51,479 bases of DNA from Patescibacteria group bacterium (GTDB taxonomy: Bacteria > Patescibacteriota > Minisyncoccia > Phycocordibacterales > UBA9973): the NCBI GenBank assembly GCA_028868715.1, contig JAGWUB010000001.1, forward strand, positions 1 to 51,479. The letters are read 5' to 3'. Position 1 is the first letter of the stretch. Each line of letters starts with the position of its first letter. The notes under the pieces were generated by a model. The model was not told where the DNA came from. It saw only the letters and a program-made list of their open reading frames with translations, and did not search any database. The position numbers and the translations under genes are program-made. Below are positions 28,246 to 38,589 of this stretch, one piece after another.

Positions 28246-29469
28246 TTAGCTTATTCTTTCTTTTATATAATCCTGTAAATCTGAAACTTTAACTCTCTCC
28301 TGCTCGCCAGTATCGCGATCACGCACGGTCACCGTATTGTCTTCTAACGTATCAAAATCAACCACAATGCAAAATGGAGTGCCGATTTCATCTTGTCGGC
28401 GATAACGCTTGCCAATGTTGCCATTGTCGTCCCAAGCTACGCGACCAAACACAGCCTTGAGCGGCGCATAGACTTTTAGGTTGGCATATTCCACCAGCTC
28501 AGATTTATTTTTTAAAAGTGGCGACACTGCGCAAATGATCGGCGCTATGTTTGGTTTAAACTTTAGATATCCACGTACTTCATCACTTTTGGTATCTTCG
28601 GTATAAGAAGAGACGAGTAATGCGAGCACCGCACGATCTACTCCCATAGATGGTTCGATGACGTGTGGTACTATTTTTCCACCAGCATCCTCATCTATAT
28701 ATTCGAGTTTGTGAGTGCTTAAATCAAAATCTGTCCTGTAAGCAAGTCCAAAAAGTTCTTTTCGTCCAAATGGAAAATCAAACTCGAAATCAATTGTTCT
28801 TTTGGAATAGTGCGCGCGGTCCGCATCTGGCACTTCCAGCTCATGCACCTTGGCCATATCTAGCCCAAGCTCCTCCATCCAACTCAACATTTCTTCTTTC
28901 CAATATTCGAAATATTTCTCCCAGTCTTCACTTCTGATAAAATATTCTATCTCCATTTGCTCAAATTCTCGCTGGCGAAATAAAAAGTCTCGTGGAGCTA
29001 TTTCATTTCTAAAGGCCTTACCGATTTGCGCCATGCCAAACGGAAGCTTGGGGTGAAAGGCATCAACTGTATTTTTAAAATTCACAAACATACCTTGAGC
29101 AGTTTCTGGACGTAAGTATGAAGTAGCTGCCTCCTCCCCGGCGCCGACTTGAGTCTTTAGCATTGTATTAAACTGTTTACCATCTAGTGGATCAGCAAAG
29201 TTGGCCACATGACCAGTCGCCTGCCAGACTTCTTGACGCATCAAGATGGCCGCATCGACGCCATACATATCGCGCCTAGAATCCACAAATTTTTTCCACC
29301 AATTTTGTTTTATATTATTTTTCAAAGCCACGCCAAAATGACCCCAGTCAAAAGTTCCAGCTAGTCCGCCGTAAATTTCTGAACCTTGAAAAATAAAACC
29401 GCGCCTCTTGCAGAGAGACACAATTTTTTCCATTAGCTTATCACTCTCATTGTTTTTTTCTTCTTTCAT
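28246..29469 (-). CDS. glyQS: Glycine--tRNA ligase (alpha2-type, compact)
   Basis: RRGFIFQGSEIYGGLAGTFDWGHFG, class II motifs (FRNEIAPRDFLFRQREFEQME; GVDR), and a C-terminal anticodon-binding domain are present. A start at ATG 29433 (MEKIVSL) is possible. Confidence 0.9.
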   Translation of the reverse strand: MKEEKNNESDKLMEKIVSLCKRRGFIFQGSEIYGGLAGTFDWGHFGVALKNNIKQNWWKKFVDSRRDMYGVDAAILMRQEVWQATGHVANFADPLDGKQFNTMLKTQVGAGEEAATSYLRPETAQGMFVNFKNTVDAFHPKLPFGMAQIGKAFRNEIAPRDFLFRQREFEQMEIEYFIRSEDWEKYFEYWKEEMLSWMEELGLDMAKVHELEVPDADRAHYSKRTIDFEFDFPFGRKELFGLAYRTDFDLSTHKLEYIDEDAGGKIVPHVIEPSMGVDRAVLALLVSSYTEDTKSDEVRGYLKFKPNIAPIICAVSPLLKNKSELVEYANLKVYAPLKAVFGRVAWDDNGNIGKRYRRQDEIGTPFCIVVDFDTLEDNTVTVRDRDTGEQERVKVSDLQDYIKERIS

Positions 29470-29483
29470 TTTTATTTTGTAAC

Positions 29484-31424
29484 CTATTGAGCCACCACAC
29501 CACCAGAAGCTGGAAAGGCACTGTCGTCTTTTAGATCGGTACGCAAAGGTGGCTTACTGACTCTCACGTCTACATTAGCAAAATCATCATGTCCGGTCAA
29601 AACGGCATCGTTGATAATAATTGGAACGGTGTTGGCTTGAGAAATCAACGGAGTATAGCCAATCTGGAAAGATACTGTTCTTTCAGCTCCGGTAATGCCT
29701 GCTCCTTTTGGAATTCTACTAACATTCCAAACTACTTCTCTACTAGCAGAATTATAAACCACGTCTTCATTGATGGGAGAAATAGGTCCCATAAAACGTA
29801 CCCAAGTCGGTAGAACAGCGCGCATTTCCGCTTTGGAAATGCTATTGGATGTATTTGAGAGAGACCAGACTATTGTGTAAGTTGTCTCTTTTTCAACTTT
29901 TGGAGGTATTAAACCAGTGTTGGTAAATGGACCTGAATAATAAAGTGCCTTGGCGGTGAGCCCTACATCGGAAATAATTTTAACTACTTTAGAATCAGAG
30001 TTATTTAATTCCTGAGGCTGATAACCTGACACCAGCTGGTTGCCAGTAATAGCAACGTCTATATTAACGGATGGATTGGATATGATTCCATCTGTAGTAG
30101 AAAAAAGTGCAATTGGAGAGATAGAAAAATTAACAGAACCAAAGTCACCAGGGTTAATTTCTGAGAATTGACTCTGTGAAAATTTATCCCAAACGATTGT
30201 ATTTGTAAGTGAATCATAGTTACCTTGTTCAGCCGTTACTGTATTTTTGTTATAGGCATTTCCTGAAATAGTCGCTTGAATTTTTAAATCATCCACTTTG
30301 GTGTCCAAATTATTACTCCAATTAATCGTGCCTTGAATTGGCGTTTTGGAATCTACAGCATATTCACCTTGTGATACCCCATTGATTGAGAGATTAGCCT
30401 CAATGAATGGTTTCTTTACCATTACGGCATGCGTTAAAGTGTTTAAAACAACGCCTATGGCAGATTGATCGGTGCCGGATTGCGATCCGCTAGATACTCG
30501 AAAATCTTTTTCTTCTCCTTCAATGACGTTTAACATTTTGCCGGTTATGGAAATATTGCGATCCACTCCGGGAGCGAGATCACCCATACTCCAAACATTG
30601 TTACCAGTCGATGGCGGAGGCACAGCGGAGGTAAATTCAAATCCGGGCGGATAATCAACCTTCAGCAACACATTGGGTATAGATTTGGTAGCATTTAGGG
30701 TGGACTTAACGTTGAGGGTAATATTTTGATTTGGGCTTATGGTAACCGGCGCATCAACTGATAGATTTACTGGCGTAGAACTTATGGTAACTTGATAAGG
30801 TTTTTCTTTTACGAAAATTGCGTTAGAGCCAGCGACTCGATACTCAATGGAAACCTTTATGGGACGCACTGATCCCTGTTCACCAAAGAGAACCAGTTTT
30901 ACATTTTCATTCCGCACTGCTCCCGCGGGAATACTTCCTAACGATTCCCGAAAGTGCTCCGTGTTGGCAGCTAGGCTAGCATCTCCGCCCTTTGGATATT
31001 CCACTACTAAATCTACTAAGTCTAATGGAGAATTATTTCTGTTGGTAATACCTATAACCAGAGATAGATCATCTCCGCCGGCAACAAAAGTATTTCCAAG
31101 TATGGAGATATCAATATTGTTATTGGAAACAGTGTTACCAGCAAAAAAGAACACATAGGAAGCATAGCCTATGGTTAAAACAAAAAATGCTACTGAAAAA
31201 ATAAAAAATTTCTTGAATCTAGAAGTTTTCATAAAAAATTTTTCTTGATAATTTAAACCGTCAGACTCAGGCTTTTTGGCATCACCCCACGAATCCGGCA
31301 CATTGGCCTTACTGGGGTGCAAAAAACTATCTCGGTACTCAATTTTTGTCTGATAGTTCTTGCTAAAGAGCTTGGTTTTCAATTCCTCTATTCTATTTAA
31401 TTTATTCCTGTCATTTAAAGGCAT
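29484..31424 (-). CDS. Large membrane-anchored protein with repetitive beta-rich (Ig/CARDB-like) extracytoplasmic region, function unknown
   Basis: A ~70-aa cytoplasmic N-terminus and one TM helix (FFIFSVAFFVLTIGYASYVFFF) are followed by ~550 aa rich in N/S/T/V/G with repeated beta-strand patterning. Confidence 0.7.
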   Translation of the reverse strand: MPLNDRNKLNRIEELKTKLFSKNYQTKIEYRDSFLHPSKANVPDSWGDAKKPESDGLNYQEKFFMKTSRFKKFFIFSVAFFVLTIGYASYVFFFAGNTVSNNNIDISILGNTFVAGGDDLSLVIGITNRNNSPLDLVDLVVEYPKGGDASLAANTEHFRESLGSIPAGAVRNENVKLVLFGEQGSVRPIKVSIEYRVAGSNAIFVKEKPYQVTISSTPVNLSVDAPVTISPNQNITLNVKSTLNATKSIPNVLLKVDYPPGFEFTSAVPPPSTGNNVWSMGDLAPGVDRNISITGKMLNVIEGEEKDFRVSSGSQSGTDQSAIGVVLNTLTHAVMVKKPFIEANLSINGVSQGEYAVDSKTPIQGTINWSNNLDTKVDDLKIQATISGNAYNKNTVTAEQGNYDSLTNTIVWDKFSQSQFSEINPGDFGSVNFSISPIALFSTTDGIISNPSVNIDVAITGNQLVSGYQPQELNNSDSKVVKIISDVGLTAKALYYSGPFTNTGLIPPKVEKETTYTIVWSLSNTSNSISKAEMRAVLPTWVRFMGPISPINEDVVYNSASREVVWNVSRIPKGAGITGAERTVSFQIGYTPLISQANTVPIIINDAVLTGHDDFANVDVRVSKPPLRTDLKDDSAFPASGGVVAQ

Positions 31425-31462: not shown

Positions 31463-32044
31463 TTATAGATGCGTTTCTTTGAGCGCACTATTTATTTGTT
31501 TTAATATACTGTTTTTGGATTTAGAAACTTCAAGCAACATGCCTGCTTCAAATGGTGACTTGATGAGGGCCTTGAGGTTGTCATTGTCACCTATGTATCC
31601 TAAATTATTTAAAATTCGTAAGACTATGATCATTTCTGCATTTTGTAAATCCCCTTTGTCAAAAATTTTCTTTAAGGCAGATAAAGCGTGGAGTACATCT
31701 ACAAACAAAATTTCATTGGGTTCCACTCCGGCCAGCAAGCGCTTCAACAGTCGCGCCACATTATAAAAAATCTTAAGAGTTTCAGGGCGTTTAGTGACTT
31801 CTTCTAAAAGATTTGTCTTGGAGGCGCTGGTAACTCGAAAAATATTTTTACCTTGCACTAGATCAATCTTGAGGTATGCAAAATCTTGCAAAATAAAACG
31901 CAATTTCGAAGACATTTTGCGCACACCAGAAGCCGAAGCATAAATCATGCCCAGATCGCGAGTAAAAATATAATAATACTTATCTGATTCTCTAAAATTT
32001 TTACTCCCCAATATTATTCCCTCGGTGTGATAAATATGGTGCAT
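31463..32044 (-). CDS. recO: DNA repair protein RecO (short)
   Basis: The N-terminal OB-like region TEGIILGSKNFRESDKYYYIFTRDLGMIYASASGVRK...LQDFAYLKIDLV matches the RecO pattern. At 193 aa it is short, so confidence is moderate. Confidence 0.7.
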   Translation of the reverse strand: MHHIYHTEGIILGSKNFRESDKYYYIFTRDLGMIYASASGVRKMSSKLRFILQDFAYLKIDLVQGKNIFRVTSASKTNLLEEVTKRPETLKIFYNVARLLKRLLAGVEPNEILFVDVLHALSALKKIFDKGDLQNAEMIIVLRILNNLGYIGDNDNLKALIKSPFEAGMLLEVSKSKNSILKQINSALKETHL

Positions 32045-32053
32045 ATTGTATGC

Positions 32054-35000
32054 CTATATTTTATCAATTTTTACCTTAAACACCAATTCATCTATTTTTA
32101 TTTCTTGCCCAGCATTTTCTGCAAATTCTATTTTAGATACAAGTACGGTCTTTTTCATGTCCGGCTCAAATTTTTGAATCAATTTCTTGCCAACTTTACT
32201 GGTTTCAAAAGTCAGCACGACGACATCGCTCGGCGTCAGCCCTTCTTTTTTTCTCATGTCTTGTAAGCCACGCACGAGCTCACGATAATCCCCCTCTTGT
32301 TTTAAATCTTCAGTAATTTCTGTATCGAGAGTTACTTTAGTTATTCCTACTTTTATTTTCAATAGGAAAATAACATTTTTTATATTTAATTCATTCTTTA
32401 TAATTTCAATATATTGACCAGACAATCCTTCGGCCACTACCCACAGGTGATTGAGTGGCTGACGTACTTTTATGCCTGCCTTCTGACGAGCTTCGAGGCC
32501 AAGGGTAACAATATTTCTAACTGTCTCCATCTTTTCCAAAACTTTTGGCCTGCCAAAAGAAAAAAGTCTGAAGGGTTTTTTAGGCCACTTGGCAAGGTGG
32601 ACACTTTCTGGATCAGTGTCATTTTTTAATTTCAACCAAATGTCTTCTGCTGTAAAAGGCGCAAAGGGAGCCATAAGTTCTGCTAGAGTTTTTAATACAA
32701 AATGTAGAGTTTGTTTGGCTTCCTTATCTCCATCTTTAATTCGTTCGCGGGAACGACGTAAATACCAAGTGGATAAATCTCCGGTAAAATCCCTCATGGC
32801 CCTGACGGGCTCAAGGAGTTTATAGTGATCCATTTTTTTTGTAGATTCAGTAATTAAATCATCCAATCTCGCCATGATCCATTGATCGAGAATATTTTTT
32901 GATTTTGGTCGTTCTGATTTTTCTAAGCTTTTATCTCTATATAGTTCGTAAAAGGCTAGCACATTGTAAAGTAAACCGAAAACTTGTTGTTGAAGTAAAG
33001 CTACTGTCTTTTCATCAAAATTTTTAGACTCACCAGGTTGGTTCACTGCATACATCCACAGACGCAAAGTGTCCACGCCGTATTTATCCATCATTACCCA
33101 TGGATCAATGATATTACCTTGCGACTTGGACATTTTTTTACCTTTAGCATCTAGTAAGTGTCCCAAGCAAATTACATTTTTATAAGCCAGACCACGTCCC
33201 ATCAATGCTCCGACAGCGTGCAGAGTATAAAACCAGCCACGAGTCTGATCTATGGCTTCCGAGATAAAATCTGCCGGATATCCGTCCCCATCCACCCATT
33301 CTTTGTTTTCAAATGGATAGTGATCTTGCGCAAACGGCATTGCTCCAGAATCAAACCAGACATCCATGACCTCGCGAGTTCGCACTAAATCGCCACCACA
33401 GGCCTGCTCCGCCACCTTGTTGTCACAAACAAGTGTAGTCTCATCTATGTATGGACGGTGTAGATCTAATTCATAATCTGGATTATGTGGGGTAGGCACA
33501 AACGGAAGTTCGCGTACTTCGGAATTTTTAAAAGATTTAAAATCATAAACAAAAACTTCAGAGTTTTGAACTTGATATGGTTTGTTGTCTGGAACATGCA
33601 GGCCAGAATTCACAAACAAAAGCCAAGCAGGGCCACCGTGAGTTACAATTAAAATATTTTTGTCTTTGTATTTATTTTCCAACTCATACAAAACTGCCCC
33701 TGTGCGACGTGCCACATCTTGCAATGACTCTCCATTTGGAATTTTGTGATTAAACCATTCATCTCCAAACCCAAGAACATAATTATGATATTCATTCCAA
33801 GGCTTCCCGTCAAAATCGCCGACATTTAATTCCTGCAAACGTTCGTCAAAAATAACTTGTTCTTCACTTAAATTAAATTTTTCTTTTAAAATTTTAGTGG
33901 TTTCTCTGGTGCGAGTAAATGGCGAGGCGATGATAAGGTCAATTTTTTTATCTATAATTTCTGTTCCGACTTTAGCTACTTGTTCTTTGCCATGTTCAGT
34001 CAGCCTATCTTCGATTTGTTCTTTGAAGCTTACAACGCCATTGTGGTTGGCTTCGGTTCCACCATGTCGCATGACAAAATATTTGTTACCAGATTTTTTG
34101 GTTTTATTTTTTAATTCCGCAATGCTTCCGATTACGTCAATTTTTTTACAAGCTACACATTGCCATACAGGTAACGGTGTCCCCCAATATCGCTCACGAG
34201 ATATTGCCCAGTCCTTTATTTCTCGGAGCCACTCACCAAAACGTCCGTCGCGTATATGGCTTGGCTCCCAATTTATTTTTTCATTTTCGGAAATCAATTG
34301 CGATTTTATTTTTGGATCTGACATCCGGATATACCAAGAGTCTCGCGCATAGTATATGAGTGCCGTATGACAACGCCAACAATGTGGATATGAGTGCTTA
34401 TAGTTTTCTTGTTTAAAAAATAAATTTCTCTTTTTGAGATCATCGATAATATCTACGGCTAAAGTGGGTTTGCCATTTTGGTCAGCTTCTCTGACAAATC
34501 TTCCTTCTAAAAATCCGGTATTTTTTACAAATTTACCTTCGGGATCTACGAGGTGGTATTTCGGTAAACCAACTTTTGTTCCCAGCACGAAGTCATCTTG
34601 ACCATACATCACCGCCGTGTGGACGATACCAGTTCCATCGGTCGTATTTACAAAATCAGCCTCATATACCATGTAGGCTTTGTCCATTTTCTTTTTCTCG
34701 GGATCGGTTATATTGTCTGCTATAAATGGATACAGTGGTTCGTATTGCATACCAACCATTTCACTGCCCTTGTGCTCAGCGACAATTTTATAAGGCTCTT
34801 CAATAATAGCAAGGCCATCCTTGGCTAGTACCAAAATTTCATTACCGACTTTTATCTCTATATAATCAATATCTTTCCCCACCGCCAGAGCCACATTCCC
34901 CGGCAAGGTCCACGGAGTTGTCGTCCACGCCAAGAAATATCCATTTTCAACCCCTACTATTTTAAATTTTACATAAATCGATAAATCTTTTATCTCTTCA

Positions 35001-35599
35001 TATCCTTGAGCCAGCTCGTGCGAAGACAATGCCGTGCCACATCTCGGACACCAAGGCACAACTTTATAATCTTTATAAAGTAAATTTTGTTCTTCTACTT
35101 TTTTTACAATATTCCAAACAGATTCTATGTATTCGTTGTCATAGGTAATATAAGGATTTTTTTCATCCACCCAGTAGCCAGACCTTTCAGTAAATTTATC
35201 CCAGAGGTCAACATATTCCCATACGGATTCTTTACATTCTTGATTAAACTTGGCAATGCCATACTCCTCAATAGCTTTTTTGGAATTGAGTCCAAGTTTT
35301 TTTTCTACTTGAAGCTCCACTGGCAATCCATGAGTATCCCATCCACCCTTGCGACGGACGTGGAAACCTTGCATGGTTTTATATCGTGGAATTGCATCTT
35401 TGAAGGCTCGCGATTCTAGATGGTGAATCCCCGGCTTACCATTGGCGGTCGGTGGACCTTCGTAAAAAACAAATTCTCCTTTCGGTGCCGGTTTTTTCAA
35501 AGATTTTTCAAAAATCTTTTCTTTCTTCCAAAATTCTAAAACTTTCTCTTCGCGAAGAGCTGTCTCAGATTTATTATTATTTTTTTCTTCCTTTTCCAT
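32054..35599 (-). CDS. ileS: Isoleucine--tRNA ligase with an inserted histidine-phosphatase (PGAM-like) domain
   Basis: It has the HIGH region (PPTANGKPGIHHLESR), the editing-domain WTTTPWTLPGN, KMSKS (KKMSKSQGN) and WFDSGAMPF. The ORF track begins at GTG 35677 inside the T-box element, so the true start is taken as ATG 35599 (MEKEEKNNNK). The insert is described in the findings. Confidence 0.95.
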   Translation of the reverse strand: MEKEEKNNNKSETALREEKVLEFWKKEKIFEKSLKKPAPKGEFVFYEGPPTANGKPGIHHLESRAFKDAIPRYKTMQGFHVRRKGGWDTHGLPVELQVEKKLGLNSKKAIEEYGIAKFNQECKESVWEYVDLWDKFTERSGYWVDEKNPYITYDNEYIESVWNIVKKVEEQNLLYKDYKVVPWCPRCGTALSSHELAQGYEEIKDLSIYVKFKIVGVENGYFLAWTTTPWTLPGNVALAVGKDIDYIEIKVGNEILVLAKDGLAIIEEPYKIVAEHKGSEMVGMQYEPLYPFIADNITDPEKKKMDKAYMVYEADFVNTTDGTGIVHTAVMYGQDDFVLGTKVGLPKYHLVDPEGKFVKNTGFLEGRFVREADQNGKPTLAVDIIDDLKKRNLFFKQENYKHSYPHCWRCHTALIYYARDSWYIRMSDPKIKSQLISENEKINWEPSHIRDGRFGEWLREIKDWAISRERYWGTPLPVWQCVACKKIDVIGSIAELKNKTKKSGNKYFVMRHGGTEANHNGVVSFKEQIEDRLTEHGKEQVAKVGTEIIDKKIDLIIASPFTRTRETTKILKEKFNLSEEQVIFDERLQELNVGDFDGKPWNEYHNYVLGFGDEWFNHKIPNGESLQDVARRTGAVLYELENKYKDKNILIVTHGGPAWLLFVNSGLHVPDNKPYQVQNSEVFVYDFKSFKNSEVRELPFVPTPHNPDYELDLHRPYIDETTLVCDNKVAEQACGGDLVRTREVMDVWFDSGAMPFAQDHYPFENKEWVDGDGYPADFISEAIDQTRGWFYTLHAVGALMGRGLAYKNVICLGHLLDAKGKKMSKSQGNIIDPWVMMDKYGVDTLRLWMYAVNQPGESKNFDEKTVALLQQQVFGLLYNVLAFYELYRDKSLEKSERPKSKNILDQWIMARLDDLITESTKKMDHYKLLEPVRAMRDFTGDLSTWYLRRSRERIKDGDKEAKQTLHFVLKTLAELMAPFAPFTAEDIWLKLKNDTDPESVHLAKWPKKPFRLFSFGRPKVLEKMETVRNIVTLGLEARQKAGIKVRQPLNHLWVVAEGLSGQYIEIIKNELNIKNVIFLLKIKVGITKVTLDTEITEDLKQEGDYRELVRGLQDMRKKEGLTPSDVVVLTFETSKVGKKLIQKFEPDMKKTVLVSKIEFAENAGQEIKIDELVFKVKIDKI

Positions 35600-35603
35600 A
35601 TGT

Positions 35604-35800
35604 AAAATAAAAAAACTCGTCCACGTACAACAATCAAAAATTGTTATACAAGGACGAGCTTCTACTCGTGGTACCACCTTGTTTTACCGCCAATTTGACG
35701 GACTCATTACTGCTATAACGGGCTTACCCGTCGGGTTCTACTTAGTTTCCTCCCGAAGCTACGGAGTGATGACTCCTTCATCGCTTGTAACTAAACTATA
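35604..35800 (-). promoter_or_regulatory. T-box riboswitch leader of ileS (Ile specifier AUC candidate)
   Basis: Minus strand shows 'agcgatgaagg' (a Stem I start, 35778-35785) and 'ggtggtaccacgag' (the T-box sequence, 35665-35678). Immediately after comes the terminator ctcgtcc...ggacgag (35616-35658) plus a U-run, about 5 nt before the ileS ATG. The candidate specifier 'atc a' is at 35770-35767 in 'ggagtcatcactcc'. Confidence 0.72.
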
Positions 35801-35814
35801 CCACATACTAAAAT

Positions 35815-35988
35815 AAAAGGAAAACAAGGCATCTTTCGATTGCCTTGTCGCGCTTGGTGCGCTTGGTGTAGATATGTGCCGAATTTTCGGCTATAAACGG
35901 TGGATCGTGACAGGGTAGTACTTTAGGCGGATTGCTCGTCTATTTCGAGCCGTCATTTGTTCCCTTGTAACCCCTTGCAAAAAACTCT
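35815..35988 (-). ncRNA. Orphan structured RNA candidate 2 (~175 nt), family unknown
   Basis: It lies behind a 36-nt conserved element plus TATAAT (35995-36000). It ends in caaggca/tgccttg (35825-35847) plus a U-rich tract. Internal helices are gctcg/cgagc (35934-35950) and gccgaa/ttcggc (35878-35891), with a tandem 'ccaagcgc' x2. No ORF is present. Confidence 0.35.
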
Positions 35989-36006
35989 ATTTTTATTATA
36001 GACCCG

Positions 36007-36042
36007 TAAAACAAATAAACTATTGAATAGTGTGTATAACTT
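36007..36042 (-). repeat. 36-nt conserved upstream element, copy 2
   Basis: Minus strand reads aagttatacaca-ctattc-aatagtttatttgtttta, identical to copy 1 at 33/36 positions. TATAAT follows 6 nt downstream. Confidence 0.85.
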
Positions 36043-36054
36043 TTTATATGGAAA

Positions 36055-36320
36055 TAAAAAAACAGGCGCTTTTAAGGTACGCCTGTATTGTAGATTCACA
36101 GCATCTACGGACCCGCTGGGGTATGTTTGAGCCCAGCATAAGATAATTGGATCACCCCCTTCAGCGATAGGCCGCCGAGCAAAACATAGGTCTCCATTGT
36201 CTCAGTCGACGTAAGTAGTTTCTGCGTCTCCGTGGATCGAATCTAGGCCCATTTTTTGATCTCATTTAGGTGTATGCTCCTTTTGGTTTAGATTTGTGAC
36301 ACTTGGGTACATCTTTATCC
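36055..36320 (-). ncRNA. Orphan structured RNA candidate 1 (~265 nt), family unknown
   Basis: It lies behind a 36-nt conserved element plus TATAAT (36327-36332). It ends in acaggcg/cgcctgt (36062-36086) plus a run of 7 U. The GC-enriched core has helices gctggg/cccagc (36115-36137) and gtagat/atctac (36090-36108). Only a 34-codon ORF is present. Confidence 0.35.
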
Positions 36321-36339
36321 CAACCAATTATAAAATTAA

Positions 36340-36375
36340 TAAAACAAATAAACTATTACATAATGTGTATAACTT
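36340..36375 (-). repeat. 36-nt conserved upstream element, copy 1
   Basis: Minus strand reads aagttatacaca-ttatgt-aatagtttatttgtttta. TATAAT follows 7 nt downstream. Confidence 0.85.
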
Positions 36376-36434
36376 TCAAGACTAGCTATAACATTTCAGC
36401 CATGACTGAAATAGTAATTATTGCAACATAAAAC

Positions 36435-38150
36435 TTACATTTTTGATGGGACTTGGATGCCGAGGAGGTGGAGGCCAGTTTTCATCACAAAAGTAAATGC
36501 GTAAGTTAACGCTATTTTGTAAGATGAGTTTTTATCTTCTTTAGATACGATAACTGTGTTTCCATAAAAGCTGTTGTAGGCACGAGCGACTTCTATCAAA
36601 TAGTTTGCTATATAGTGTGGCTCGTATTCTGAAGCTGATCGCGATACTACCTCTCTAAATTGGTATAGCAATTTTTCAACTTCAAAAGTTTCAAAGGGAA
36701 ACGTGTGTGGATCAGGTAAAATATTTTCCTTTTGAGCTTTTTCTAAAACTGAATTGGCACGAGCATAAGCATATTGTAAATATGGACCAGAGTCTCCCTC
36801 AAAGGAAATGGATTTTTCAAAATCATACATAATGTCTCCACCAGTTGATTGCTTTAATATCGAATATTTAAGAGCTGCCACACCGACAATTTCCGAAACC
36901 ATATTTTTTTCTTCCTTGCTCCATTCTCTGTCTTTTATTTTTTCTTCCACCAGAGCTATCGTATCGCGAACCAAAGACTCGCCAGTCACTACATTCCCCT
37001 TGCGTGAAGACATCTTGCCTGTGGCTAGGCGCATCATGCCATGAGTAATGTGTTTCATTTTTGATTCGTAGTCTGGATGAATTATGGAAAGTGCTTTTGA
37101 TACTACTCTCATATAGTCCATCTGCTCGTTGGCGGTGATAACTATACAGAGACTCATATCTGACAGAACAGTAAATTTTTCTTCGGTAAGCCCGAGTTCT
37201 TTTGTCTCGTAAGTAGGTAAACCCTTTGAAGTCATAAATACTCTGGTGTGTAGTTTCGGATCGTATTTTTCAGCTTTAAATACAATTGCCCCGTCTGATT
37301 CTTCGAAAACTTTACCCATGTTATCTCGCACGGCTTCTTGCCCGAGAATCGCCACTTTGCTTTCTAGAAAATAAAATTCAAATTTTGTTCCAAGTATTTT
37401 GTAAAGATCTTCAAAAGCTTTCATCGTCACCTCGAAGCCCCAATCATATATTTCGTTTATTTTTTCATCGCTTTTGTCGTAAATTTTCTTATTTATCTCA
37501 TCAATTTCATTTTTTGCCGTAGGGTCATTTTCATAAGCTGAAGCGCCTTGGGTATAAGCTTTGCCGATATTTGCCGATTGCATATTGTGAGAGCCAGATT
37601 TTTCTTGAAGTTTTTCATCTTTAAGTAAACCATAAATAGCTTTAGCCACATGAAGACCGATATCGCCTTGATAATTAGCTCGAGAGACAATAGCTCCAGA
37701 GTGTTCTAAGATTCTAGCAATGGATTCACCAATGGCGTTGGTCATCAAGTGCCCAATGTGAAAAGGTTTAAAAGGATTTGGGTCAGTATACTCCACCATT
37801 ATTTTTTTACTTGCGAGAGAGTCGTTTTTACCGACATCATATCCTTGATTTAAAATTTCTTCGACACTGCTACTAAAAAATTCTCTAGATAAATAAAAAT
37901 TTATAAATCCAGAGCCAGCCACTTCCACTCTTTCAATGTTTTTATCCAAAACTAATCTCAATATTTCGGTAACTATTTTATCTGCTACTTCTCGTGGACC
38001 TATTCCTAAGCTCTTGGCTACAACCATGGCCACATTCGTGGAATAATCCCCCATCTTTAAGTCTGCTGGGTGCTCCAAGCTAATATCGCTAACCTCAATA
38101 TCTAGATTTTCTAGCGCATCTTTTATTAAATTTTTTATTTCTTTTTCCAT
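36435..38150 (-). CDS. argS: Arginine--tRNA ligase
   Basis: It has the HIGH region (PNPFKPFHIGHL), a KMSSRKG-type loop (TGKMSSRKGNVV) and a DALR-type C-terminal anticodon-binding domain. The ORF track starts at 38189, overlapping dut. The ATG at 38150 (MEKEIKNL) is preferred. Confidence 0.95.
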   Translation of the reverse strand: MEKEIKNLIKDALENLDIEVSDISLEHPADLKMGDYSTNVAMVVAKSLGIGPREVADKIVTEILRLVLDKNIERVEVAGSGFINFYLSREFFSSSVEEILNQGYDVGKNDSLASKKIMVEYTDPNPFKPFHIGHLMTNAIGESIARILEHSGAIVSRANYQGDIGLHVAKAIYGLLKDEKLQEKSGSHNMQSANIGKAYTQGASAYENDPTAKNEIDEINKKIYDKSDEKINEIYDWGFEVTMKAFEDLYKILGTKFEFYFLESKVAILGQEAVRDNMGKVFEESDGAIVFKAEKYDPKLHTRVFMTSKGLPTYETKELGLTEEKFTVLSDMSLCIVITANEQMDYMRVVSKALSIIHPDYESKMKHITHGMMRLATGKMSSRKGNVVTGESLVRDTIALVEEKIKDREWSKEEKNMVSEIVGVAALKYSILKQSTGGDIMYDFEKSISFEGDSGPYLQYAYARANSVLEKAQKENILPDPHTFPFETFEVEKLLYQFREVVSRSASEYEPHYIANYLIEVARAYNSFYGNTVIVSKEDKNSSYKIALTYAFTFVMKTGLHLLGIQVPSKM

Positions 38151-38163
38151 TAGTAATTTAAAA

Positions 38164-38589
38164 TTATTTATGACCTGTGCTACCTTCACGCCTATCTCCT
38201 CGGACAGTTTCTGAAAGTTCGTCTACTTCTAGAATATCACAATGCTCAAATTTTTGAATGAGCATTTGGGCTATTTTATGATCTTTGGTCATCAATACTT
38301 CCTTATTAGAAACATTTAAAAGATTCATAATTATTTCTCCCCTATAACTAGAGTCTATGACCCCGCCCATAACTTTTAACCCTAAATTGAAGGAAATACT
38401 TGATTTATCCCAAATCAGCCCTACGTAGCCTTCTGGAATTTCAACTGCCACCCCAGTATGCACTCTTTCTTGCTTGCCGGGTGGAAAGATAACATCTTCG
38501 ACACAATAAAAATCCATCCCTGCATCCCCTGGATGTCCATGAGTTGGCAATTTGGCGTCTGCTATAAGTTTTTTTACTTTAATTTTCAT
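38164..38589 (-). CDS. dut: dUTP diphosphatase
   Basis: dUTPase motifs are present: GDAGMDF, GLIWDKSS, GVIDSSYRGE, IAQ, RG...GSTG. Confidence 0.9.
   Translation of the reverse strand: MKIKVKKLIADAKLPTHGHPGDAGMDFYCVEDVIFPPGKQERVHTGVAVEIPEGYVGLIWDKSSISFNLGLKVMGGVIDSSYRGEIIMNLLNVSNKEVLMTKDHKIAQMLIQKFEHCDILEVDELSETVRGDRREGSTGHK

Follow-up and report, generated by a model that had tools for sequence, protein, structure and literature searches.

Aminoacyl-tRNA synthetases (aaRSs) are among the most conserved enzymes, and bacterial ones rarely gain catalytic modules; the textbook nested hydrolase is the editing domain carried by connective peptide 1 (CP1) of isoleucyl-, valyl- and leucyl-tRNA synthetases (IleRS, ValRS, LeuRS). 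The closest described systems for the protein studied here are, for one part of it, the type-2 IleRS enzymes (IleRS2), with solved structures from Priestia megaterium and Thermus thermophilus, and, for the other, small-molecule phosphatases of the histidine phosphatase superfamily such as PspA, GpgP, PhoE, CobC and TIGAR. In this work we analysed 51,479 nucleotides of a genome of the Patescibacteria group (contig JAGWUB010000001.1, positions 1 to 51,479; this whole stretch is called the window). Its ileS gene encodes a predicted IleRS2 of 1,181 amino acids (AA) that carries a complete histidine phosphatase domain nested within the synthetase. An initial annotation of the same DNA had noticed this domain and knew of no described IleRS built in this way, and the literature searched agrees. 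Searches of the open-access literature brought up no IleRS, and no aaRS of any kind, with a histidine phosphatase domain; the word 'phosphatase' is absent from a survey that annotated 96,219 GTDB IleRS sequences, and the insert is unmentioned in recent papers on IleRS evolution and structure. Yet the architecture is abundant, and unremarked, in public sequence databases, where the annotation of these proteins is inconsistent ('class I tRNA ligase family protein' or 'histidine phosphatase family protein, partial').

Results

The phosphatase segment was initially placed at positions 33467–34093, with a frame unbroken by stops. The coordinates are correct and the frame is open when read on the minus strand, the strand of ileS, which the initial annotation had not stated: the plus-strand translation of the segment contains many stops, and translation of the minus strand gives an uninterrupted SGNKYFVMRHGGTEAN...PHNPDYEL, within the open reading frame (ORF) 32054..35677(-). 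On the 1,181-AA product, Pfam finds tRNA-synt_1 (AA 20–503 and a later stretch), His_Phos_1, Anticodon_1 and DUF5915. The His_Phos_1 match (PF00300) had been expected at about residues 505–690 between tRNA-synt_1 matches, and it is found at AA 508–688, flanked on both sides, with E=7.1e-34 and 117.6 bits for a gathering threshold of 21.7, and with coverage of profile positions 2–182 of 194; the 209-AA segment alone gives E=1.9e-35 and 122.8 bits.

The limits of the insert come from alignment to solved structures. Query AA 10–497 correspond to residues 7–475 of 8c8w and AA 704–1076 to residues 479–847, and the insert is therefore AA 498–703, that is, about 206 residues that stand for about 3 residues in P. 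megaterium IleRS2 (475–479). The insert-less IleRS of a related metagenomic contig (L176) has 8 residues (EKLSSVKV) at the same site, so that the short linker which the domain was said to replace is indeed 3–8 residues long in reference proteins. As the catalytic HUP core of the P. megaterium enzyme consists of residues 40–168 and 513–632 (PMC10485003), the insertion site lies in connective peptide 2 (CP2), and about 35 residues separate it from the start of the core's second half. It also lies between the Cys pairs C481/C484 and C725/C734, in the zinc-knuckle loop where the initial annotation had put it. The alignment offset matches C481 and C484 to C461 and C464 of T. thermophilus IleRS (1ILE), which are reportedly zinc ligands. 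All four knuckle Cys are found in only 44 of the 81 closest sequences, and the insert is always there; the Cys4 knuckle is gone as a unit in the other 37, with insert presence unaffected, and the knuckle is dispensable in the family. The 8-residue spacer within the second pair is an expansion specific to the window, most relatives having C-x-C. Both junctions are conserved in sequence, with a KKSGNxY lead-in on one side and F.P.PH..LDLH.P on the other. In the AlphaFold2 (AF2) model of the full-length protein, the block-mean predicted local distance difference test score (pLDDT) is 94 over the N-terminal junction (AA 481–510), where a helix (493–499) runs into a strand (506–511). The return path to the synthetase includes a low-confidence loop (Table 1), and the model of the insert alone falls below a pLDDT of 50 at its residues 172–175.

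The architecture is specific to the Candidate Phyla Radiation (CPR), or Patescibacteria, a clade specificity that had been left to be checked. It was sought in one genome per GTDB species with a query running across both junctions, which gave at least 568 relatives; the best 80 of these were analysed, and all match contiguously from flank through insert to flank. A second scan, with a distant member (P0034) as query, gave 80 further species with no overlap with the first set, and the nested architecture is present in at least 160 species-representative Patescibacteria genomes. The relatives include Nomura-, Zambryski-, Colwell-, Harrison-, Brenner-, Lipton-, Azam-, Sungii-, Wildermuth- and Portnoybacteria, and further taxa with the nested architecture are Minisyncoccia, Paceibacteria and Parcubacteria, including RAAC4_OD1_1; the 'Saccharibacteria' label borne by many third-party (TPA) assemblies with the insert may be generic. 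Nearly all loci hold a single unbroken ORF of about 1,100–1,390 AA from stop to stop, the shorter ones lying at contig ends. Each of the 161 proteins compared has exactly one phosphatase domain, in an insert of 165–223 AA. Many database matches are no longer than 580 AA, some of them on long contigs, as would be expected of IleRS genes split at the insert, but these are frameshifted or fragmented calls of one gene (P0042+P0073, P0003, P0011, P0082/L081), and the retrieved matches listed without PF00300 are C-terminal fragments that begin inside the domain. The upper limit on match length, at about 1.75 times the length of the query, looks like a feature of the search itself.

All the catalytic motifs that were initially listed are present (R511-H512-G513...N518, S559...R563, E590 and H654), and the RHG and HG residues are conserved: R511, H512, R563 and H654 are invariant in the 161 sequences. 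The conservation extends to S559 and G537 (161/161), R632 (160/161), T534 (159/161) and E624 (158/161). Among domain copies that include free-standing proteins and other fusions (134–135 representatives of clusters at 50% identity), R511-H512 is kept in 134 of 134, and R563 and H654 are each kept in 135 of 135. The insert is, on average, 50% identical to that of the window in the closer set of 80 relatives, versus 64–69% for the IleRS parts, and the insert regions of the second set of 80 are more divergent than that. Saturation of synonymous sites is seen even in the comparison with the closest relative, and the proportion of non-synonymous differences (pN) was set against that of synonymous differences (pS) in place of dN/dS. 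The pN of the insert is 0.21–0.31 for a saturated pS of about 0.7–0.8, which shows clear purifying selection on the insert; among the closest relatives, this pN is 1.1–1.9 times that of the IleRS N-terminal part.

The insert gives a confident model both alone and in the whole protein, which answers in the affirmative the initial question of whether it folds independently: the AF2 model of AA 498–711 has a pLDDT of 90.0 and a predicted template modelling score (pTM) of 0.88, and the full-length model has a pLDDT of 90.8 and a pTM of 0.84. Foldseek returns 308 PDB matches for the insert at E<=1e-3, of which the 50 best are all members of the superfamily, with a probability of 1.00 to PspA, GpgP, TIGAR, CobC and PhoE (TM-score over the query, TMq, 0.60–0.70). 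The nearest neighbours in sequence and structure are only 19–29% identical and comprise CobC, PspA, PhoE/YhfR, mycobacterial GpgP, TIGAR, Shb17 and a phosphatase of the riboflavin pathway. CobC (TIGR03162) is the best named subfamily, with 98.3–103 bits, under the equivalog cutoff of 162.9; PspA (NF045917) reaches 60.7–65.7 bits for a cutoff of 350, though it is the top structural neighbour (TMq 0.65). Naming a substrate after a subfamily or a structural neighbour was tried and rejected, all candidates being below threshold or equally distant. Judged from its motifs and its family, the insert is most likely a branch-1 phosphomonoesterase acting via phospho-H512 and belonging to the small-molecule group (PspA/PhoE/CobC/GpgP-like), not a mutase, and we infer a bifunctional protein, with two enzymes in one polypeptide.

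The host of this domain is, by its sequence, a type-2 IleRS: it is nearest to IleRS2, has a C-terminal DUF5915 and is not of the treble-clef zinc type. The best PDB matches are IleRS2 structures with 772–783 bits, versus about 315 bits for IleRS1, and the MupA/MupB models score 776–779 bits, under their exception cutoff of 1900. The ileS model TIGR00392 (NCBIfam) scores 851 bits for a cutoff of 621.4, in two stretches parted by the insert. In the C-terminal part, Anticodon_1 covers AA 905–1049 and DUF5915 AA 1087–1180, the latter being a partial match (profile positions 100–194 only). This C-terminus (AA 1087–1181, 32057–32341) has about 170 residues fewer than five relatives (L014, L040, L047, L056, L061), so that the IleRS of the window has a trimmed type-2 C-terminal domain. 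The initial description of the flanking motifs as normal stands for KMSKS, intact at AA 822–826 (33122–33136, minus strand) and present in 155 of 161 relatives, and for the editing domain, where TTTPWTLPGN (AA 226–235) and GTGIVHTA (AA 322–329) are kept across the family; it does not stand for HIGH, as the class I signature is a swapped GIHH and not the canonical HxGH. A G/AxHH signature is found in 133 of the 148 scorable relatives, and six relatives (e.g. L040) read VLHT, in which a single His is retained, an oddity for a class I synthetase. The swapped G-X-H-H motif is a natural and catalytically competent IleRS2 variant that gives mupirocin hyper-resistance (PMC10485003). The full-length AF2 model matches IleRS2, yeast and Thermus IleRS in Foldseek with E=1e-90 and TM-scores over the target (TMt) of 0.77–0.85. 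The TIGR00392 score, the motif census and the T-box leader upstream of the gene together make the synthetase look functional, as a housekeeping type-2 IleRS with its own T-box.

The genes around ileS point to where the domain came from. Of the 160 insert-bearing loci, at least 109 encode ArgRS upstream and at least 78 encode RecO downstream; RecO is downstream in contigs L162 and L176 too. A phmmer search with the insert alone against 1.84 billion cluster representatives gave 12,408 matches at E<=1e-3, of which 1,198 at E<=1e-10. Most of the best 150 matches are IleRS proteins, whole or in fragments, that carry the domain at this same site, and the 150 also include about 40 free-standing proteins of 185–208 AA, with 33–42% identity. 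Four free-standing genes (P0235, P0172, P0178 and P0183) start 1–55 nt past the stop codon of argS, and after three of them (P0172, P0235 and P0178) ileS comes next, abutting or overlapping, in the order argS-phosphatase-ileS (L172, L173/174 and L176); where the contig holds only the start of the adjoining ileS, its product is 48–51% identical to the N-terminus of the window protein. The block of L176 reads SmpB-IF3-L20-ArgRS-phosphatase (189 AA)-IleRS (931 AA, no insert)-hypothetical-RecO, and the sister contig L177 has, between IF3 and L20, a gene called as ribosomal protein L35. The L176 phosphatase aligns end to end with the window insert (34% identity, E=3e-26). No second phosphatase ORF was detected by profile outside ileS in the window and 1.38 Mb of insert-bearing loci. 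Since the free-standing gene lies between argS and an insert-less ileS, and insert-bearing loci have no second copy, the separate argS-ileS cistron and the domain inside ileS are complementary states of one syntenic slot.

The same phosphatase subfamily is found in other proteins of tRNA metabolism, and the catalytic residues are retained in all scorable copies there. Three metagenomic IleRS proteins (P0200, P0203 and P0220) have two or three phosphatase domains: one copy follows the second Cys pair in P0220, one follows HYPFEN in P0200 and P0220 (about AA 762–772 of the window protein), and one precedes the anticodon-binding domain in all three (about AA 887–898). These multi-site variants are known from metagenomes only, and their nearest GTDB relatives (L167–L171; Patescibacteria, of which one Uhrbacteria) have no phosphatase domain. 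The ValRS of the Gracilibacteria metagenome-assembled genome RS_2_30 (L163, JAGLIF010000003.1, ORF from 2851) carries two copies in tandem in the loop from WGHQIPVWY to DTLDTWFSS, which is homologous to the insertion site of the window IleRS, and a metagenomic ValRS (P0131) has four, with the main array in the homologous loop; the ValRS copies are catalytically intact, and three other CPR ValRS (L164–L166) have none. In three ArgRS sequences (P0205, P0257 and P0258, divergent down to 49% identity) the domain is fused to the C-terminus; in P0205 (L162, 6001–8070) it is joined to a normal ArgRS C-terminus (...GIFAPEHM followed by FNNSYFFLRHG...), and RecO comes next, with no ileS between. Four clusters of fusions to Sua5/TsaC diverge down to 52% identity. 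Sua5/TsaC, the t6A enzyme (P0152, P0376–P0492), is a fusion hub in Patescibacteria, its partners including, besides this phosphatase, MGMT (PF01035, the commonest), TruB, 2H/LigT phosphoesterase, 3-methyladenine glycosylase, GNAT and NUDIX.

The remaining features of the locus are as follows (Table 1). The true start of ileS is likely the ATG at 35599, from which the protein begins MEKEEKNN..., because the T-box leader takes up 35647–35790; the stop codon is the TAG at 32054–32056 (minus strand). The Stem I of this T-box is nearly gone, 76 model positions being reduced to 6 nt, and the leader can be likened to the 'ultrashort Stem I' translational ileS T-boxes of Actinobacteria (PMC7583486). 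Between the T-box and argS, about 640 nt (35791–36434) contain no ORF longer than 48 AA, no tRNA and no Rfam match at E<=1, which is a large gap for a compact genome; this gap is the slot of the free-standing phosphatase gene in related genomes, and a six-frame hmmsearch of it with filters off detected no phosphatase relic (E>1). Downstream of recO, a 646-AA ORF (29484–31424, minus strand) has no Pfam match. It lies between recO and a class II synthetase gene (28246–29469), and L162 has a 548-AA ORF with a faint DUF7619 match in the same slot, which makes the 646-AA ORF a conserved unknown. ARAGORN found no tRNA or tmRNA gene in the window. A more distant free-standing clade is represented by P0250 (L179, 4001–4627), which lies directly after a gene for cofactor-independent phosphoglycerate mutase and has a glycerate kinase and a HAD hydrolase in its neighbourhood, a glycerate/phosphoglycerate context unlike that of argS-ileS.

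Table 1. Coordinates of the ileS locus and of the parts of its product in the window (residues numbered on the 1,181-AA protein)
Feature	Position	Strand	Basis
ileS coding sequence, predicted 1,181-AA type-2 IleRS with nested phosphatase	32054..35599	-	ORF; TIGR00392; best PDB matches 8c8w/1ile; AF2; Foldseek
IleRS N-terminal part, AA 1–497: first HUP half, CP1 with editing domain, start of CP2, C481/C484	34109..35599	-	Pfam; 8c8w alignment
Class I signature, swapped non-canonical GIHH, AA 57–60	35420..35431	-	Direct reading
First zinc-knuckle pair, C481-x-x-C484	34148..34159	-	Direct reading
Insert, complete branch-1 histidine phosphatase domain and return linker, AA 498–703	33491..34108	-	Alignments with 8c8w and L176 IleRS
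His_Phos_1 envelope, AA 508–688	33536..34078	-	Pfam PF00300; Foldseek
R511-H512 of RHG, H512 predicted phospho-accepting nucleophile	34064..34069	-	161/161
R563, second phosphate-binding Arg	33911..33913	-	161/161
E590, predicted general acid	33830..33832	-	E 154/161, D 7/161
H654, second catalytic His (THGG)	33638..33640	-	161/161
Low-confidence loop, AA 671–687, return path from phosphatase to IleRS	33539..33589	-	pLDDT <50, full-length model
IleRS C-terminal part, AA 704–1181: DLHRP, second HUP half (DVWFDSG), KMSKS, anticodon-binding and type-2 C-terminal domains	32057..33490	-	8c8w 479–847; Pfam
Second zinc-knuckle pair, C725...C734	33398..33427	-	Direct reading
T-box leader upstream of ileS	35647..35790	-	Rfam RF00230, 75.2 bits (gathering 93), E=1e-16 to 3e-16, full model span
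argS (ArgRS), conserved upstream neighbour	36435..38189	-	ORF and translation
recO, conserved downstream neighbour	31463..32044	-	Pfam RecO_N/RecO_C

Discussion

Taken as a whole, these observations are best explained, in our view with reasonable though limited probability, by a predicted active phosphatase that was captured from the argS-ileS operon and is now nested in a functional IleRS2. In such an enzyme H512 would attack the phosphomonoester of a small molecule and become phosphorylated, R511, R563 and H654 would hold the phosphate, and E590 would protonate the leaving group and next activate water; the two active sites of the polypeptide would work independently. The ancestor would be a free-standing phosphatase gene between argS and ileS, as in related Patescibacteria. 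In the lineage of the window the separate cistron would have vanished as the adjacent ileS took up the domain in a surface loop that tolerates insertion, and, once locked into an essential gene, the domain would have passed by descent to a very large Paceibacteria/Parcubacteria clade. The nested domain most likely originated in this way, from the gene next to ileS. Three observations weigh against this explanation. First, the neighbour-joining tree of 135 domain copies is star-like and resolves neither the monophyly of the nested copies nor the direction of transfer, which is why that direction is one that we infer. Second, the CobC, PspA, GpmB and PhoE-like equivalogs all score below their cutoffs and the structural neighbours are nearly equal, so that they point to no one substrate. 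Third, the recruitments to ValRS, to other IleRS loops, to the ArgRS C-terminus and to Sua5/TsaC are not accounted for by mere adjacency to ileS.

The last point bears on an alternative that we regard as unlikely but worth weighing, namely a functional coupling of the phosphatase to the synthetase, in which it would be more than a passenger. It might clear a phosphorylated product or by-product of adenylate chemistry (AMP, pyrophosphate (PPi), Ap4A-type dinucleotides or a mis-activated aminoacyl-adenylate), take the 2'/3'-phosphate off damaged tRNA ends, or strip phosphate from the synthetase itself, for instance where a HipA-like toxin kinase has attacked it; by analogy, it would be a second nested hydrolytic accessory domain with a logic like that of the CP1 editing domain. 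aaRSs form aminoacyl-adenylates and TsaC forms threonylcarbamoyl-AMP, both in ATP-dependent reactions that release PPi. The partners IleRS, ValRS, ArgRS and TsaC are thus all ATP-dependent, PPi-releasing enzymes of tRNA metabolism, and the repeated recruitment of the subfamily to such acyl-adenylate-forming enzymes makes a functional coupling possible. The occupation of four different IleRS loops, the 2–4 tandem and catalytically intact copies in the homologous loop of ValRS, the three ArgRS C-terminal sequences and four Sua5/TsaC clusters, and the translational juxtaposition of the free-standing copies with argS and ileS are all in its favour. The conservation of both junctions also speaks for it, though the KKSGNxY lead-in occurs in free-standing copies too, and in the full-length model the confident N-terminal junction and the whole-chain pTM would be consistent with a fixed orientation of the phosphatase on the synthetase, whereas the 17-residue disordered loop predicted in the return linker suggests some flexibility.

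Other observations count against this alternative. Fusion of neighbouring genes is promiscuous in Patescibacteria, where Sua5/TsaC is joined to MGMT, TruB, 2H phosphoesterase, DNA glycosylase, GNAT and NUDIX, and because fusions are so common in these genomes the Sua5/TsaC fusion is weak evidence of a shared function. The position of the phosphatase gene between argS and ileS is in turn sufficient to explain both the fusion to ArgRS and the insertion into IleRS. The branch-1 enzymes of the histidine phosphatase superfamily are phosphomonoesterases, and to our knowledge none is established as a hydrolase of PPi or of acyl-adenylates; nor do we know of any binding of tRNA ends by Sua5/TsaC, which counts against the tRNA-end variant. 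The ValRS events and those at the additional IleRS sites lie outside gene adjacency, and they keep the idea of a coupling alive. Its most general form, in which the phosphatase is a recurrently recruited accessory domain that works in concert with the adenylate-forming enzymes of tRNA metabolism (IleRS, ValRS, ArgRS and TsaC), we consider doubtful.

Very unlikely, in comparison with a captured and active phosphatase, is a catalytically dead structural or regulatory module, either a pseudoenzyme or a bulky lineage-specific expansion of CP2. Class Ia synthetases do tolerate large idiosyncratic insertions in this loop, and the evolutionary rate of the insert is somewhat above that of the IleRS core. 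The five catalytic residues, together with S559, G537, T534, E624 and R632, are nevertheless invariant or nearly so in 161 sequences despite an average insert identity of only about 50% in the closer set of 80 and a greater divergence in the second set, and near-invariance amid such divergence is the signature of a retained active site.

No more credible is a cofactor-dependent phosphoglycerate mutase (dPGM), that is, a glycolytic enzyme riding on IleRS, to which we give a very low probability. Patescibacteria depend on lower glycolysis, the insert belongs to the PGAM-like superfamily, and it gives weak matches to dPGM models. All these matches are far below cutoff (NF038349, 63.8–68.1 vs 225; TIGR01258, 21.9 vs 81.7; NF002339, 28.8–33.7 vs 316; NF010718, 20.3 vs 366), dPGM structures rank under phosphatases in Foldseek, and the insert reads ELNVG after the catalytic Glu and THGG at the second His, where dPGM enzymes have ERHYG and HGNS. 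The initial annotation had left the choice between a phosphatase and a mutase; the first of the two is retained, and the second is unlikely on these scores and motifs.

An artefact of assembly, which the initial annotation had raised as a doubt, or a self-splicing, mobile intein-like element removed from the mature protein can be dismissed, as, for all that the window comes from a metagenome-type assembly and several database entries show the gene in pieces (the frameshifted or fragmented calls mentioned above), recurrence of the same in-frame architecture in 160 genomes assembled independently in many projects excludes a chimera for practical purposes, and an intein would have the HINT fold, not that of histidine phosphatases, a conserved Cys, Ser or Thr, which is not found as the first residue of the insert, and a C-terminal HN followed by a nucleophile, where the residue after PHN near the C-terminal junction varies.

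A second hydrolase, unrelated to CP1 and apparently active to judge by its residues, is thus nested in the connective region of a housekeeping IleRS, and this holds throughout a whole class of bacteria that are ultra-small and uncultivated. The likely route is itself captured in present-day genomes, from a cistron of the argS-ileS operon to a domain in ileS, with parallel acquisitions in ValRS, ArgRS and TsaC, and it provides a natural experiment on the origin and fixation of domain insertions in the essential genes of genomes under streamlining. A practical consequence is that metabolic reconstructions of CPR bacteria could mis-score the PGAM-family match in ileS as a glycolytic mutase. If the phosphatase were coupled to aminoacylation, it would represent a new kind of synthetase accessory activity, and if it were an accessory domain in the general sense considered above, no other nested catalytic domain would have been added to a class Ia synthetase between the CP1 editing domain and this one.

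Comparison with known systems

The synthetase part shares with the IleRS2 of P. megaterium (8C8U/8C8W) and T. thermophilus (1ILE) the HUP fold, CP1 with its editing domain, CP2, the anticodon-binding domain, the type-2 C-terminus and KMSKS, and with the hyper-mupirocin-resistant IleRS2 the G/AxHH variant of the class I signature. It differs from IleRS2 in having a foreign enzyme domain of about 206 residues in place of a 3-residue linker, and in a DUF5915 region that is shorter than that of many relatives. The phosphatase part has the fold of PspA (4IJ5), GpgP (4PZ9/6S2Q), PhoE/YhfR (1H2E/1EBB), CobC (3HJG, 6NRU) and TIGAR (3DCY), the same R-H...R...E...H constellation, and a similar size and cap region; in contrast with these enzymes, to which it is 19–29% identical, it is nested in another enzyme and scores below the cutoffs of the equivalogs. 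Its closest non-nested relatives are the free-standing phosphatases P0178 (L176), P0172 (L172), P0235 (L173) and P0183 (L178), which are 34–42% identical to it along the full domain, the lowest E being 1e-33. These have the same catalytic residues and the same syntenic block argS-ileS-recO, and some share a 'SGN.Y..RHG' lead-in, but they are separate cistrons of 185–205 AA, next to an IleRS whose insertion site is spanned by a short linker.

The conceptual precedent is CP1 of IleRS, ValRS and LeuRS, likewise an autonomous hydrolytic domain set in a connective peptide with its chain ends close together. CP1 is ancient and found universally, and its coupling to aminoacylation by way of post-transfer editing is demonstrated, whereas the phosphatase is clade-specific and of an unrelated fold. 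Two described families are reminiscent of the present protein in part. NF040702, an IleRS with an N-acetyltransferase domain, also combines IleRS with a second enzyme domain, and the window protein gives a partial match to it (302 vs 1999) and is not a member. NF005567, the RNase H/acid phosphatase of the Rv2228c type, joins a CobC-like phosphatase to a nucleic-acid enzyme, and here again the window protein is not a member (77–79.5 vs 326). Both component families of the protein are thus well known, and what is new is their architecture and its history.

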